Below, in pieces: positions 55,997 through 62,127 of a stretch of 64,000 nt of DNA. Each line of letters begins with the position of its first letter. Positions within the stretch are counted from its first letter, which is position 1. The stretch lies in the NCBI GenBank assembly GCA_963793485.1, contig CAWCAB010000003.1:740418-804417 (forward strand), written 5' to 3'. The notes under the pieces were generated by a model. That model made no database searches. It was not told the DNA's origin and worked only from the letters and a program-made list of their open reading frames with translations. Source of the DNA: an uncultured Bacteroidota bacterium (GTDB lineage Bacteria > Bacteroidota > Bacteroidia > Bacteroidales > B18-G4). The position numbers and the translations under genes were made by a program.

Positions 55997-58367
55997 TTAT
56001 TCTTCTGTTCCATGATGCTCTGTCCGTCTGATGATCTCATCCTGGAGTTCTTCTGTAAGGTCAACGAAGTAATCGCTATATCCCGCCACACGGACGATCA
56101 GGTCACGGTGATCATCAGGATTCTTCTTTGCCTTGCGCAGGGTATCCACATCAACAACATTGAATTGTATGTGGTGTCCATTCATCTTAAAGTATGAACG
56201 GATCAGCTGACGCACTGCTGTGATCCCTTTTTCATCCTCAAGGAAGGAAGGCGTAAATTTCTGGTTTAAAAGGGTGCCTCCGGTGAGTAAATGGTTCATT
56301 TTTGCCGCTGATTTCAATACAGCAGTAGGTCCTTTACGATCAGCACCTTGCATGGGAGAGATGCCTTCAGAAAGGGGTTTGCGAGCATGGCGGCCATCAG
56401 GTGTGGCGCCGGTAACACTGCCAAAGTAAACATGACATGTTGTTGGAAGCATATTGATACGATAGTGTCCACCTTTCATATTGGGCCTGCCATCTACCGC
56501 GTCGAAATACATCTTAAATACAGTAAGCATGAACTGATCGGCCTCATCATTATCGTTGCCATATTTTGGGGTCTCATTCCAGAGTTTGCTCCTGAGTTCC
56601 TCCATCCCTTCAAAATCAACTTTAATGGCGTCCATTAACACATGGAATGAAATGCTTTTTTTATCGAAAATATGATGATTGATGGCAGATAGCATGTCGG
56701 TGATGCTTCCAATCCCAACACCTTGAATATAATTAGTATTATATCTTGCACCGCCGGCATTATAGTCAATACCTTTGGTAATACAGTCATCAGTGATCAT
56801 CGACAGGAAAGGAACAGGAAGGTATTTTGCATATAGCTTCTCAATGATATTATTCCCTTCGATCTTGATGTTGATAAAGTGATTCAGCTGCTTTTTGAAG
56901 GCGTCTAAAAGCTCTTCCATCCTTTTAAATCCGGTTGGCTCACCACTTTCGATCCCGATCATTTTTCCGCTTTGAGGATCTATACCGTTATTCAGAGTGA
57001 TCTCAAGTACTTTAGGGAGGTTGAAATAGCCTGTCAGGATGTACGCTTCCTTCCCGAAGGCACCAGTTTCCACACATCCGCTGGCACCACCATTCCTGGC
57101 ATCAACCAGGGTTTTTCCATGGTTCAACATTTCCTGGACGATGGCATCAGTATTGAATATGGAAGGCTGCCCAAAGCCAGTCTTTATGATCTTCAAAGCC
57201 CTGTCCACGAAGGCGTCAGGATTTCTATGACTCACCTGAAGCATTGAACTGGGTTGTAAGAGCCTCATTTCCTCAATCACATCCAGTATGAGGAAGCTTA
57301 GATCATTTACAGCATCACTGCCATCTTCTTTGAGCCCCCCTGTATTGATCAGGGAAAAGTCGGTGTAGGTATTGCTTTCTTTTGCCGTGATACCCACTTT
57401 CGGCGGGGCCGGATGGTTATTAAATTTTATCCAGAAAGCTTGCAATAGCTCCTTCGCTCTTTCCTTCTGCATTCTTCCTTCTGCAATTTCCTGTTCAAAG
57501 AATGGGAACAGATGCTGATCCAGGCGTCCGGGATTAAAGGAATCCCAGGGATTCAATTCTGTGATCACCGCCAGGTGGACAAACCAATAATATTGAAGGG
57601 CCTGCCAGAAATTTTCAGGCGGGTTGGCTGGAATATGCCTGCAATTTTTTTCCATTTCGAGCAGTTCAGCTTTCCTGTCTGCGTTGGTTTCTCTTGCAGC
57701 CAGGTTTGCCAGTGCATCCGCATAGCGCAATGAAAAACTCATAAGGGCATCGGCTACAATGTCCATGGCTTTTAACTCCTCATTCTTGTTGGCAGCTTCA
57801 GGATCCTTATCGAAATCCAGCGCCTGGATGCTCGTTTTGATCTTGTTTTTGAAATCGAGCATACCCATTCGATAGATCTTATCATCAAGTACGGTATGGC
57901 CAGGGGCACGCTGTTCCAGGAATTCAGTAAAGATACCTGCTGTGTAGCAATCTTTCCATTGTGATGAAACAGATTCGAAGATTTTTTCACGTATCGACTT
58001 GCCAGTCCAATATTCAGAAACTTCGCCGGTGAGAGTATTTACTGTATGATTCGATGCCTTGAACCAGACCTTCTCCCTGTCGTTCAGATACCTGGAGATC
58101 TTCCGGAGTGTGTACACAGATCTCAGGATAGCTTGGTGTTGCCTTTGGCTTAGGGCCACGTTCGCCAACGATAAGTTCGCCTTTGCCGATATAAATTTCT
58201 TTGTTATTGAGGATGTAACTCAATGCCATTGCACGTTGTACCGGAATAGACAGTTCATCTATGCCTTTCTGCTTGTAAAACTTGGTCAGAAGCTTAGCGC
58301 GTTCTTCAGAAATATACGGCACTGCATTCAGGCTTTTTTCGCGTAATGTTTTTATTCTCTTATTCAT
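55997..58367 (-). CDS. hypD: Glycyl radical enzyme trans-4-hydroxy-L-proline dehydratase (1-nt frameshift near 58090)
   Basis: EQRAPGHTV, PWDSFNPG, ESNTYTDF, SGCVE, TGYFN, LPTTCH, VRVAGYS match recalled HypD active-site motifs. Confidence 0.85.
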
Positions 58368-58375
58368 GATCAGTT

Positions 58376-59137
58376 TTATCCTCCAATATTTACTTTAAAT
58401 CCCATGGATTTGAACTTGTCACGGATCTCCAATATCCTGTTTTCGTCGGGGGCTGTGAGCGTATTGCTGCTCTTGATTCCCATTTTCTCTTGTTTTCCTT
58501 TTCCCAGGTCATGATATGACAGCAGGTCGATCTCAACATTTTCGGCACTACTCAACATGCTTGCGATCCCATCCAGGTTGCCATCATCGGCTGTGATCTC
58601 ATTCACCAGCGGGATACGAATGCGGTAAGGAACCTTCATCTCTGCCAGGTGTTTGAGATTAATATGAATCAGGCTGTTTCCGGTCCCTGTATAGAGCTCA
58701 TGTCTCTTATTGTCAATGATCTTCAGATCGAAGAGGATAAGGTTTGTTAAACTCGCCACCTCGTTGAATATCTCCTCCGGGGCATATCCCGATGTATCTA
58801 CTGTGGTGTGGATGCCCTCTTCTTTAAGCTTTTTGAGTATTTCCAGGAGGAATTCAGTTTGCATCAGGGGTTCTCCACCGGAAAAAGTCACACCGCCACC
58901 CGACTCTTCATAAAATACTTTGTCCTTAAGGATTTCATCCAGCAGTTCATCTATTGAGTACTTCTTTATGGATGATTGAGGAGCATATCTGCCCTTGCTT
59001 TCAATATGTTGCGGAATTCCTTCAGGATTATGACACCAGGAACATTGCAAGGGGCAGCCCTGGAAAAAGACTGTTGTCCGGATGCCGGGCCCATCGTGGA
59101 TAGAAAATCGTTGGATGTTAAAAATGTATGCGTGCAT
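58376..59137 (-). CDS. Glycyl-radical enzyme activating enzyme (radical SAM)
   Basis: HDGPGIRT, CPLQCSWCHNPE, GVTFSGGEP; no ferredoxin insert. Confidence 0.92.
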   Translation of the reverse strand: MHAYIFNIQRFSIHDGPGIRTTVFFQGCPLQCSWCHNPEGIPQHIESKGRYAPQSSIKKYSIDELLDEILKDKVFYEESGGGVTFSGGEPLMQTEFLLEILKKLKEEGIHTTVDTSGYAPEEIFNEVASLTNLILFDLKIIDNKRHELYTGTGNSLIHINLKHLAEMKVPYRIRIPLVNEITADDGNLDGIASMLSSAENVEIDLLSYHDLGKGKQEKMGIKSSNTLTAPDENRILEIRDKFKSMGFKVNIGG

Positions 59138-59379
59138 GACTTATGCTTCTTGAAGCATTAATGAATAAAACGAAAGACAGGGGGGAGTCCGGACTAATAT
59201 ATCCAACATTCAAAGAGTCCCTTCCAGGACTTTTTGTACCATTTGCCGATATTAAGGATATAAGGCATAATAGTCTTAGATTGTGTTACAAAGATAATAC
59301 ATTTTCTACCGAAGTGGGACATTTTTTGATTTTCAGTATTAATAAGTAGGGCTGTCTTCGATGTGAGATAAAAGAAAAA

Positions 59380-59847
59380 TTTACCGCAAAGGTCACAAAG
59401 TTATTCGCAAAGAACACAAAGATTGTTAGGAATGAATGAGGAAAAACTGTTTAAGGATGTCTTGGATTTGTCTTTTAAGGTCCATATCTCATTGGGGCCT
59501 GGTTTACTTGAAAGTGCATATGAACAATGCTTATTTTATGAACTTTCGAAATCTGGTTTGTTTGTTGAAAAACAGAAGCCATTGCCATTAGTTTATGAAG
59601 ATGTTAAATTAGAAGTTGGATATAGAGTTGACTTATTTGTTGAGAATCAGATTGTTATTGAAGTCAAATCTGTCGAGGCATTAGCTGATGTGCATCTTGC
59701 CCAAATATTGACTTATTTAAAGCTCTCAAATTGCAGACTAGGATTACTTGTAAATTTTAACGTTCGGTATCTAAAAGATGGTATCCGACGAGTGATATTT
59801 TCCTCTTCGCGGTCTTAGCGGTAGTCTTTGTGTCCTTTGAGGTTAAA
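59380..59847. mobile_element. Candidate GxxExxY cassette bounded by imperfect inverted 9-mer arrays
   Basis: 59380-59422 matches the reverse complement of 59804-59847 at about 32/44 positions. Confidence 0.5.
59432..59818 (+). CDS. GxxExxY protein (PD-(D/E)XK nuclease family)
   Basis: LGPGLLESAYE, YRVDLFVE..IVIEVKS, AQILTYL, GLLVNF. Confidence 0.92.
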   Translation: MNEEKLFKDVLDLSFKVHISLGPGLLESAYEQCLFYELSKSGLFVEKQKPLPLVYEDVKLEVGYRVDLFVENQIVIEVKSVEALADVHLAQILTYLKLSNCRLGLLVNFNVRYLKDGIRRVIFSSSRS

Positions 59848-59899
59848 CGAATTCTTATCTATTCATTCGAAGTGATATCTTTGTATAAATTAGTCTTGG

Positions 59900-60853
59900 A
59901 TGATGGAATTTGAACTGCCGGAAGATATATTTACTCCTTTGGAAGAACTAAGGGCATGTAATATATGTCCCAGGAAGTGCAATGCCGATCGTTTTTCATC
60001 CAAAAAAGGCTATTGCAAAGCCGGAACAGAATTCAGCATCTCATCTATTTGTATCCATAGGGGAGAGGAGCCGGTGATCAGCGGCAGCAAAGGGATTTGT
60101 AATGTGTTTTTCACCCACTGTAACTTGCAATGTGTATATTGCCAGAACTGGCAAATCAGCGATAACAGCCTGGATCATAGCCCGGAATTCATGGAACTGG
60201 ATGAAGTGCTAAGACAGATCATATTTATTCTGGATACAGGCATCAATATTCTTGGATTTGTATCTCCGGGGCATTACATCCCTCAAATGAAGATCATTGT
60301 GAATGCGCTCAATCATCTTGGGTATAAGCCTACTATTGTTTATAATTCAAATGGTTACGACGATGCAGCACAATTGAAGAAACTGGAAGGGATGGTAGAT
60401 GTTTACCTGCCGGATTTCAAGTATATGGAAGAGGGGACTGCCCGGAGGTATTCCGATGTAAAAGATTATCCTGAGATTGCCCTGAAGGCTCACAAGGAGA
60501 TGTACAGACAGATGGGAAGCAACCTCATCATAGACAATGAAGGTTATGCCATGCGAGGAATGCTTATACGGCACCTTGTTCTGCCGGGGCATACGGAGAA
60601 TAGTATTAAAGTGCTGGAAGCGATTGCGAATGAGTTATCGCCAAGCGTGCATGTTGCCTTGATGTCGCAATATTATCCGACTCACAGAGCAAATGAATAT
60701 GCGCTTCTGAATCAGACAGTTGATTCTAAAGAATACCATAAAGTCATCGATAAAATGACGGAATTAGAAATTACAAGGGGCTTTGTGCAGGGAATTGAGA
60801 GTGCTGATAATTACAGGCCGGATTTTGATGGAAATCATCCATTTGAAAATTGA
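59900..60853 (+). CDS. Radical SAM protein, PflX-like
   Basis: CNICPRKC, HRGEEP.ISG, CNLQCVYCQN, YLPDFKY, IRHLVLPG, MSQYYP. Confidence 0.85.
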   Translation: MMEFELPEDIFTPLEELRACNICPRKCNADRFSSKKGYCKAGTEFSISSICIHRGEEPVISGSKGICNVFFTHCNLQCVYCQNWQISDNSLDHSPEFMELDEVLRQIIFILDTGINILGFVSPGHYIPQMKIIVNALNHLGYKPTIVYNSNGYDDAAQLKKLEGMVDVYLPDFKYMEEGTARRYSDVKDYPEIALKAHKEMYRQMGSNLIIDNEGYAMRGMLIRHLVLPGHTENSIKVLEAIANELSPSVHVALMSQYYPTHRANEYALLNQTVDSKEYHKVIDKMTELEITRGFVQGIESADNYRPDFDGNHPFEN

Positions 60854-60854
60854 A

Positions 60855-60966
60855 AAGCTGGCTGCTGATAGCTGGTGGCTGTTGGCTGTGTCAAAGATCC
60901 AGGATCTAGTATCTAGTATCCAGGATCTAGTATCTAGTATCCAGTAACAAGTAACAAGTAACAACA
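60855..60966. repeat. Heptamer arrays (TAGTATC/CAGGATC; AAGTAAC)
   Basis: caggatc tagtatc tagtatc caggatc tagtatc tagtatc cagtaac aagtaac aagtaac. Confidence 0.8.
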
Positions 60967-60967
60967 T

Positions 60968-61856
60968 ATGTATTATCCCATTGACTACAGCGAACCCCTT
61001 TTCCGCCCTCCCAGCGAGGCCTATTCTCTAATCTTGCAACCCACCATAGGATGCAGCTGGAACTCTTGTGCATTTTGCGAGATGTACACCACCAAGAAAT
61101 TCAGTATCAGGGAACTGGATGATGTGCTTGCTGAGATCCAGTCAATGGCCGAATACAAAGATCAAATTCGTAAAGTATTCCTGGGAGATGGCAATGCCAT
61201 GGCCCTGCCTGCAGATTATCTGATCGACTTGCTGGATGAGTTGAATCGTGCATTTCCCAGGCTGAGCCGGGTTTCATCCTACGCCATCCCAAAAGACCTG
61301 GCAGGCAAGACCGATGAAGAATTGAGCAAGATCAGGGAGGCTGGGCTGAAACTCATCTATGTGGGCATTGAATCAGGTGATGATGAAGTGCTTGCAAATG
61401 GTGAATAAGGGTGAAACTCACGAAAGTACTATTGAGGGCATGTTGAAGTCAAAGGAAGCAGGGATGAAGAGCTCTGTGATGATCTTAAGCGGATTAGGGG
61501 GTAAAATATACAGCCAACAGCATGCAGCCAACAGTGCTATGGTGGTAAATGCAGTCCAGCCGGAATACCTCTCCACGCTGGTCTTGAGCTATCCCCACGG
61601 ACTGGAGCATTTTAAGAAACGCTTTAAAGGTGATTTCGAAGCCTGTGAAATCCCGGATCTTCTGCTTGAACTGAGGACCTTCCTGTCCAGTACAGAGCTC
61701 GAACACACTATTTTTCGCAGCGATCATGCCTCAAACTACCTCATACTGAAAGGAAACCTGGGACGTGACAAAAATCGTATGCTGGAAGAGATTGATGCTG
61801 CCCTGAACAATCCTCTAGGGGCAGGGCTGAGGCCGGAGTGGCTGCGCGGACTTTAA
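60968..61856 (+). CDS. Radical SAM protein (1-nt frameshift near 61395)
   Basis: RPPSEA, GCSWNSCAFCEMY, FLGDGNA, GIESGDDEVL|MVNKG, FRSDHASNY. Confidence 0.8.
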
Positions 61857-61941
61857 GATATCTGATATCTGATATTTGATATTCGAACCTCTTTCATGGG
61901 CTGCTTTGAAAAAGTGTTAATTTAGATTTATATTTTAATGC

Positions 61942-62127
61942 ATGAGGAAATCTTCTTTAATATTGATACTTCTCGTGACTTTGTCATTCTCTGTGAATGC
62001 TCAGCTGAATATCTTTAAAGGTGATTCCGTTACGATTGGCAAATTAAGGGTGCCTGCACAACTTTCATTAGGTGGGGCGATCAGGCTGAATGAGAATTTG
62101 CATGATTATTATAAAAAATGTCAGTAG
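61942..62127 (+). CDS. Short signal-peptide-bearing ORF, possibly a truncated gene
   Basis: MRKSSLILILLVTLSFSVNAQ Bacteroidota-type signal peptide (Gln at +1), only 61 aa. Confidence 0.4.
   Translation: MRKSSLILILLVTLSFSVNAQLNIFKGDSVTIGKLRVPAQLSLGGAIRLNENLHDYYKKCQ

Follow-up and report, generated by a model that had tools for sequence, protein, structure and literature searches.

The window analysed here, a stretch of 64,000 nucleotides (G000:C3:740418-804417, G000 being the genome from which it comes), holds between positions 59380 and 59847 a small gene of the GxxExxY family framed by two repeat arrays in inverted orientation. By its relatives and its gene content, G000 would belong to the Bacteroidales. 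GxxExxY proteins form a widespread family, and their function is listed as unknown in PMC3424549. The initial annotation had put the locus forward as a minimal mobile cassette, adding that the ends of its transcript might pair into a long stem.

Architecture of the cassette

In the cassette, which is about 470 bp long, inverted arrays of a 7-base unit stand on both sides of a GxxExxY gene (Table 1). In inverted comparison, 31 of 43 positions match between the arms (72% complementary), and a best ungapped 43-nt inverted match of at least 31 is reached by the flanks of 3 of the 3,245 ORFs in the genome, the GxxExxY gene included. The inverted match proposed initially is real, at this count instead of 32/44, and each arm does contain four units spaced 9-12-9, starting at 59385, 59394, 59406 and 59415 on the left and at 59805, 59814, 59826 and 59835 on the right; as a notation for the unit, C[AGT]C[ACGT]AAG is preferable to a 9-mer. 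As had also been noted, the stop codon (TAG, 59816-59818) lies inside the right array, in its second unit, the gene is AT-richer than its surroundings (34.6% GC against 42-45% in three neighbour genes) and no transposase accompanies it, neither the eight neighbouring proteins scanned nor the cassette itself containing a transposase domain of the DDE, HUH, serine or tyrosine type. Likewise, no Rfam match was found within 58900-61000. Gene and arms had been recognised from the start, but two things had been overlooked: a promoter-like motif lying 60 bp further left, and the hairpin family spread over the genome.

Table 1. Features of the cassette and its immediate surroundings, in window positions.
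Feature	Position	Strand	Remarks
Glycyl-radical enzyme activase, left neighbour	58376..59137	-	Context
TATCTTTG box	59289..59296	-	Likely housekeeping -7 element for the activase/hypD operon; bounds the variable region on the left
GACA-N14-GTATTAAT motif	59318..59343	+	Likely alternative-sigma (ECF-type) promoter shared with competence genes, which would drive the nuclease gene
Left arm	59380..59422	+	TTAC lead and four CNCNAAG units, spacing 9-12-9
GxxExxY nuclease gene	59432..59818	+	128 aa; last 5 codons and stop extend into the right arm
Right arm	59804..59846	-	TAAC lead and four units, spacing 9-12-9; inverted relative to the left arm
TATCTTTG box	59876..59883	+	In front of the PflX-like gene; seen too in relatives without the cassette
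PflX-like radical SAM gene, right neighbour	59900..60853	+	Right neighbour in only some relatives

Both sides of the cassette carry a TATCTTTG box of the TAnnTTTG form, which we take to be the housekeeping -7 element. The box on the activase side is conserved in relatives both with and without the cassette, and the one ahead of the PflX-like gene implies that this gene likely has a promoter of its own. Directly upstream of the activase, a 24-codon ORF (59194-59268, minus strand) ends in KWYKKSWKGLFECWIY; its 16 C-terminal residues are near-invariant, with synonymous changes, in 13 of the 14 genus loci matched, and it might encode a leader peptide or a small partner of the hydroxyproline dehydratase operon. 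Both hypD (55997-58367) and a second radical SAM gene (60968-61856) are split by a frameshift; since the contigs of relatives are one base shorter at 58087-58089 and at 61390, these frameshifts are likely sequencing errors of the assembly. Positions 60896-60946, between PflX and the next gene, present very high contig depth and many loose ends, which points to another widespread short repeat.

The nuclease

The protein belongs to the GxxExxY family, matching TIGR04256 with 142.4 bits (cut-off 35) and PF13366 with 137.4 bits (cut-off 22). As these are its sole domain matches, it is not a Y1 transposase of the HUH type, and no GIY-YIG match was found for it in Pfam or NCBIfam. The catalytic residues D67, E77 and K79 are invariant in 91 sequences, and Q91 and Y95, whose layout we take to be that of the QxxxY motif, are intact in the window's protein. 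The predicted structure (pLDDT 94) adopts a PD-(D/E)XK restriction-like fold, as had been stated initially for the family. The best Foldseek matches are Cas4 and lambda exonuclease, none with E <0.001, and VIA-align retrieves BpuSI (Z 8.6, rmsd 2.7, 93 aligned residues) and Cas4 (Z 8.1, rmsd 4.8, 105 aligned residues); these scores, middling in size, speak for the fold but not for a substrate, and family membership does not follow from them. A sequence search for solved structures returned none. The nearest folds, Cas4/RecB-family domains (SSO0001, Pcal_0546, lambda exonuclease), share the D..ExK and QxxxY layout, but the GxxExxY protein comprises 128 aa, has no Fe-S cysteines among its conserved columns and lies outside any CRISPR context. 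In 10.1101/2021.01.26.428298, one annotation tool is mentioned as having labelled a GxxExxY gene cas4.

The GxxExxY genes are under purifying selection, with dN far below dS against relatives (for example, dN 0.041 and dS 0.60). The family had no match in 50,697 phage records and was found in 8 of 72,556 plasmids, a distribution that fits spread via chromosomal DNA.

A motif shared with DNA-uptake genes

Alignment of left flanks brought out the conserved motif GACA-N14-GTATTAAT, of which the genome contains 38 exact copies at spacing 14 and at most one at any other spacing from 8 to 21. A matrix built from the exact copies locates 49 sites, 42 of them with a same-strand ORF within 260 nt, and 40 downstream proteins were scanned, the cassette's gene being excluded along with cases that were weak or short. 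In G000 the motif precedes genes for ComEA-like, ComEC, DprA, ComM/YifB, YraN, RadC, SSB and TopA proteins, so that DNA-uptake and recombination genes have an upstream motif in common. It also precedes two ECF sigma genes, 15 four-helix-bundle genes, three RAYT-like genes (one under the cut-off), an IS200-type TnpA gene and genes of the GIY-YIG, DUF559, RhuM and ORF6N types, as well as the second GxxExxY gene. For the four-helix-bundle, RAYT and GIY-YIG types, this takes in most of the genes. In the recA operon the motif stands before a peroxiredoxin-like gene that recA follows, and comF has a weak variant (12.6 bits); neither of the two uvrA genes is preceded by the motif. According to PMC8459023, transformation in Riemerella requires ComEC, DprA, ComF and RecA, and YraN and ComM have been described as processing the D-loop in transformation. 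From this gene set we infer that the motif is a promoter tied to competence.

The exact motif is present in all 15 genomes of the genus, mostly in 17-44 copies (1 in G013, 4 in G014 and 7 in G010), and falls to background level outside family f1. Among the 22 GxxExxY genes of the genus, a motif score of at least 25 is reached by 13, two of which contributed to the matrix. For a further gene the motif stands on the other side of a contig break, and five others follow, at 56-73 bp, a long helix-hairpin-helix gene; the motif of that operon is known from G000, which retains the left arm alone at that site. In total, 19 of the 22 are thus located behind the motif or behind a gene of its operon, and three are not. 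At GxxExxY loci outside the genus, 0 of 97 scored 25 (best 13.4 and 7.3); two of the genes there lie directly behind comM. Within family f1, two or three GxxExxY genes appear by eye to have local motif variants, and upstream variants for radC and comM are found, among the matches listed, within this family only.

The gene set of the motif presents some further features. Sixteen of the 19 TIGR02436 four-helix-bundle genes of G000 (one frameshifted) lie directly behind it, and two more follow radC or comF. The two ECF sigma genes, G000:C2:821271-821843 (L095) and C1:613018-613587 (L124), carry the motif themselves, which makes them candidates for the competence sigma factor of the lineage. A LanC-like gene (G000:C2:62622-63728, L089) and a 69-aa peptide judged by eye to resemble a lanthipeptide precursor (C2:815585-815791, L128) carry it too and might represent a competence-linked bacteriocin. 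A pair that appears by eye to be HicA/HicB-like follows another copy (G000:C1:656663-657252).

Array families across genomes

A scan of the genome for clusters of the unit yielded 24 arrays; three Markov controls gave 2, 0 and 0. The 24 include five pairs of closely spaced inverted arrays with no gene between, arms standing alone and a pair bracketing a second GxxExxY gene (C2:839213-839599), so that both GxxExxY genes of G000 have arms. As in REPIN-RAYT systems, the repeats occur also as dispersed inverted doublets. Over 7 cassettes and 4 hairpins, the first and fourth units span 30-33 nt, about three helical turns, with a C-A/G-C-N-A-A-G core and free spacers.

The comparison was extended to 41 related genomes and one contig scan, which yielded 119 distinct homologous genes once frameshifted and partial matches had been left out; 109 of these have full flanks. 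Inverted arrays with at least three units on each side were found at 61 of the 109 loci, the remaining 48 lacking them, against 19/109 for direct orientation, 39/250 for mismatched loci, 1/109 for shuffled flanks and 6/300 for random ORFs. Other GxxExxY genes do carry such flanks, as the mobile-cassette proposal had anticipated. The unit varies by protein clade (CACAAAG, CACAGAG, CACAGAT, CACGAAT, CACGGAT), and array type tracks the clade across hosts, one genome having several types, each coupled to a gene of its own. A valine in position 111, which follows directly on the invariant N108-F109, accompanies 33 of 33 G-ending units and 0 of 21 T-ending units. This position is the top column for residue-base covariation, which is non-significant by independent pairs, a test without power here, the unit changing only three times on the tree; residue 111 may be regarded as a candidate specificity residue.

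Arrays without a matching intact gene number 14 in G013, 3 in G002 and 102 in G037, the last accompanied by broken or weak matches only. The 102 three-unit arrays of G037 are of the CNCNAAG type and its only GxxExxY gene is broken (G037:C338:6226-6536), making this genome a case of a repeat burst whose gene decayed. In a record titled Ignavibacterium album (L170), from another phylum, a nuclease 75% identical to that of the window has the same arm type and lies amid tandem hairpins; horizontal transfer of the cassette is likely.

Occupancy and history of the site

In the genus, the site belongs to a block comprising hypD, the activase, a sulfatase-modifying-factor-like gene (a label assigned by eye), a helicase or esterase gene and PflX, in varying order, many of the junctions being occupied by arrays. 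G000 is devoid of three of the genes that lie between array sites in relatives, namely the sulfatase-modifying-factor-like gene and those for the helicase and the esterase. The activase junction, readable in 14 genus genomes, holds an intact cassette in six (G000, G004, G005, G006, G008 and G011), a truncated one in G012 and none in seven. Apparent decayed promoter scars can be discerned by eye in G003, G009 and G013, while G002, G007 and G014 present other repeat types and G010 is bare. In front of PflX lie a decayed gene in G005 and a cassette with an internal deletion in G012. As to the empty sites that were to be looked for between the activase and PflX, the site is not stably occupied, but no clean empty allele was seen, G009, in which the two genes adjoin, retaining its decayed promoter-like scar. 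More generally, target-site duplication, clean insertion and precise empty alleles were not seen, the compared sites being too diverged or replaced wholesale.

In two paralog pairs, shared sequence extends no further than the arm ends. In G031, L161 and L162 are 90.9% identical from -35 to +70, and in G006, L044 and L131 share sequence from -107, in the promoter, to +36. In the concatenated tree the sister of G000 is G011, and the activase also joins the two (support 97), rejecting a grouping of G000 with G012/G003/G006 (AU p 0.0003; PflX p 0.004). The nuclease of G000 is 68% identical to that of G011 and 80% to that of G006, the latter pair sharing the 9-12-9 arm type. In AU tests run with these identities already known, gene plus arms place G000 with the G006 copies (97/96) and reject both G000+G011 (p 6e-5) and a four-species group (p 0.003); the protein alone rejects the former (p 0.006) and leaves the latter unrejected (p 0.10), and gene DNA in 17 rows leaves vertical descent unrejected (p 0.27, 0.39). 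Taken together, the phylogenies suggest that the cassette at the window's site was probably swapped at an occupied site. A chimeric origin from two cassettes found no backing, identity along the gene being flat against all relatives, although G000 lacks the three genes named above.

Other intergenic sites are variable as well. At L300:990-1095, a CACAAAG hairpin occurs in G000 only among five genomes compared (equivalent sites L305, L309): G004 and G009 have a four-helix-bundle cassette together with a promoter there, while in G011 and G006 the place is taken by short repeats of other kinds. Another gene-less hairpin is present in G000 and G004 among six genomes. Such sites behave as interchangeable slots, and some copies have resided vertically at theirs for a long time. 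Excised forms, which the initial annotation had suggested looking for, did not come to light: contigs of near relatives (4 runs, positions 57500-62000) contain no empty or excision joint, and for two gene-less hairpins no joint skipping the hairpin. One 1,418-bp contig (55 differences) spans the cassette and PflX. The one joint, from 59422 to 59825, was rejected as an excision and read as a hairpin from elsewhere (24-letter side, 25 other letters between). The minimal mobile cassette is thus partly supported: similar flanks at other GxxExxY genes, patchy occupancy, paralogs bounded by arm ends and tree discordance agree with it, whereas target-site duplications were not seen at the sites compared and some copies have long been vertically resident.

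A putative competence-coupled repeat nuclease

The gene, its arms, the hairpin family, the patchy occupancy and the shared upstream motif are all observed features. Sharing a motif with DNA-uptake genes, together with gain, loss and swap among relatives, argues for a selfish cassette whose protein would act on the flanking repeats during DNA uptake. If the motif is a competence promoter, the protein would be produced at times when the cell contains D-loops and single-stranded donor DNA. It would read the CNCNAAG units, which form four sites roughly a helical turn from one another, and nick at or near them, and repair of the cut by host RecA/ComM/YraN recombination would copy, swap or delete cassettes and gene-less hairpins at intergenic sites. 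Such repair might also rearrange the genes between cassettes, and would need neither a transposase nor target duplication. For this competence-coupled, selfish system we see a likelihood only a little short of even.

Its nearest rival is restriction of the kind attributed to the GIY-YIG nuclease SsnA of Neisseria meningitidis, in which the nuclease would cut incoming single-stranded DNA bearing arrays and lower its integration, the cassette persisting by shielding itself and repeat-marked loci against replacement; the host may even use such a nuclease to tune gene exchange. The Ssn-NTS/SRM system, as presented in PMC11893778, also has a small nuclease gene, of a single domain, lying between repeats that belong to it, with extra repeat copies genome-wide and a link to natural transformation, and deletion of ssnA is reported there to raise transformation 5-fold for repeat-bearing DNA. 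The cassette thus has the architecture of NTS-ssnA-NTS, and the competence-type motif, the purifying selection and the long residence at some sites are congruent with restriction. The proteins differ, however, Ssn being a GIY-YIG nuclease with demonstrated ssDNA cutting and the present one a PD-(D/E)XK protein (PF13366), and the NTS is described in the same source as a hairpin with an upstream motif, whereas the cassette arm is made up of four phased 7-base units, pairing-type covariation not being seen in 7 cassettes and 4 hairpins. Moreover, restriction alone leaves the arm-bounded new copies, the swap at the window's site and the gain of hairpins unexplained, and we consider it unlikely, although restriction and spread may be stages of one system. 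The arrays that outlast their gene in G013, G002 and G037 count against both.

It is less probable still that the gene is a passenger, caught between arrays spread by a RAYT, by slippage or by ordinary repeat recombination. The many arrays of G013 and G037 without a matching intact gene, the three RAYT-like genes and the IS200-type TnpA gene behind the motif in G000 and the filling of the same intergenic sites by unrelated repeat types in sister genomes would all agree with such an origin, but array type follows protein clade across hosts, with several types per genome each paired with its own gene, and such arms are rare at random genes (6/300) while both GxxExxY genes of G000 possess them.

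REPIN-RAYT systems, as treated in PMC5581495, resemble the cassette in having a low-copy nuclease gene between repeats, gene-less inverted doublets in intergenic DNA and few occurrences on plasmids, and the E. coli RAYT is reported there, citing Sinha 2009, to rise on competence induction. According to the same source, RAYTs are HUH tyrosine transposases and REPs short palindromes, unlike the GxxExxY nuclease and its arrays, and RAYTs seem not to copy themselves, whereas the GxxExxY cassette has arm-bounded paralogs within a genome.

That the arms act as RNA, forming a stem round the gene through which the cassette is excised from transcripts, or stabilised in them, in the manner of rRNA intervening sequences, is the least probable of these readings: the minimum-energy RNA fold does pair both arms, folding of the pairs without a gene reaches z -2.7 to -6.0 relative to base shuffles and the left arm, being downstream of the motif, would be transcribed, but the whole cassette reaches a z of only -1.4 (RNA) or -1.6 (DNA), spacer complementarity is 0.57 within pairs against 0.50 between pairs in cassettes (permutation p 0.11, variable core positions) and 0.28 against 0.42 in hairpins, about half of the mismatches are transversions and a solo array elsewhere resembles each arm (34 and 37 of 44) more than the arms resemble one another (31). 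The covariation values (p 0.11 and 1.0) come from the small sample of 7 cassettes and 4 hairpins; the long stem suggested initially finds no backing in them, the arms having no excess complementarity at free positions and giving no sign in this sample of being kept for pairing.

For the competence-coupled cassette, two other comparisons are pertinent. YraN and CoiA, as characterised in 10.1101/2024.02.06.579203, are small endonucleases of the PD-(D/E)XK fold that work on ssDNA or D-loops during transformation, and yraN of G000 lies behind the same motif as the cassette; they are host core genes without flanking repeats, whereas GxxExxY genes are patchy, multi-copy and repeat-bound. Insertion sequences and MITEs likewise have a gene between inverted ends, with internally deleted and gene-less derivatives, but the cassette has no transposase domain, no target duplication was found for it, its copy number is low and its dN is far below dS. 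By analogy, it would appear to resemble REPIN-RAYT and Ssn-NTS in working, but its protein is of neither class.

Implications

We would propose, more tentatively than for the cassette itself, that GxxExxY proteins constitute a third class of repeat-specific nucleases, after the HUH RAYTs and the GIY-YIG Ssn proteins, homing via natural transformation. They would carry competence promoters or insert behind them and read a 7-base unit via a reprogrammable residue 111, host recombination moving both nuclease and hairpins, and more than half of the competence-regulon promoters of the lineage would serve such small repeat-flanked genes. A literature search found no account of these repeats with the GxxExxY family or of GACA-N14-GTATTAAT; subscription papers and supplements, which lay outside the search, may hold one.

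For the GxxExxY family, the locus puts forward the arms as candidate substrate, competence as candidate time of action and residue 111 as candidate specificity residue, and the function of the family is therefore testable with a 128-aa protein and short oligonucleotides. To this come a series of alleles at a single site, with a probable swap, and a full candidate regulon from a genome in three contigs; a Bacteroidales lineage gains a candidate promoter and regulon for competence. A small sequence-specific nuclease for ssDNA or junctions would, in addition, make a useful tool. Finally, the locus points to a lifestyle tied to DNA uptake that small genes of otherwise unrelated kinds, all flanked by repeats (four-helix-bundle, RAYT, GIY-YIG, DUF559 and GxxExxY), would have in common.
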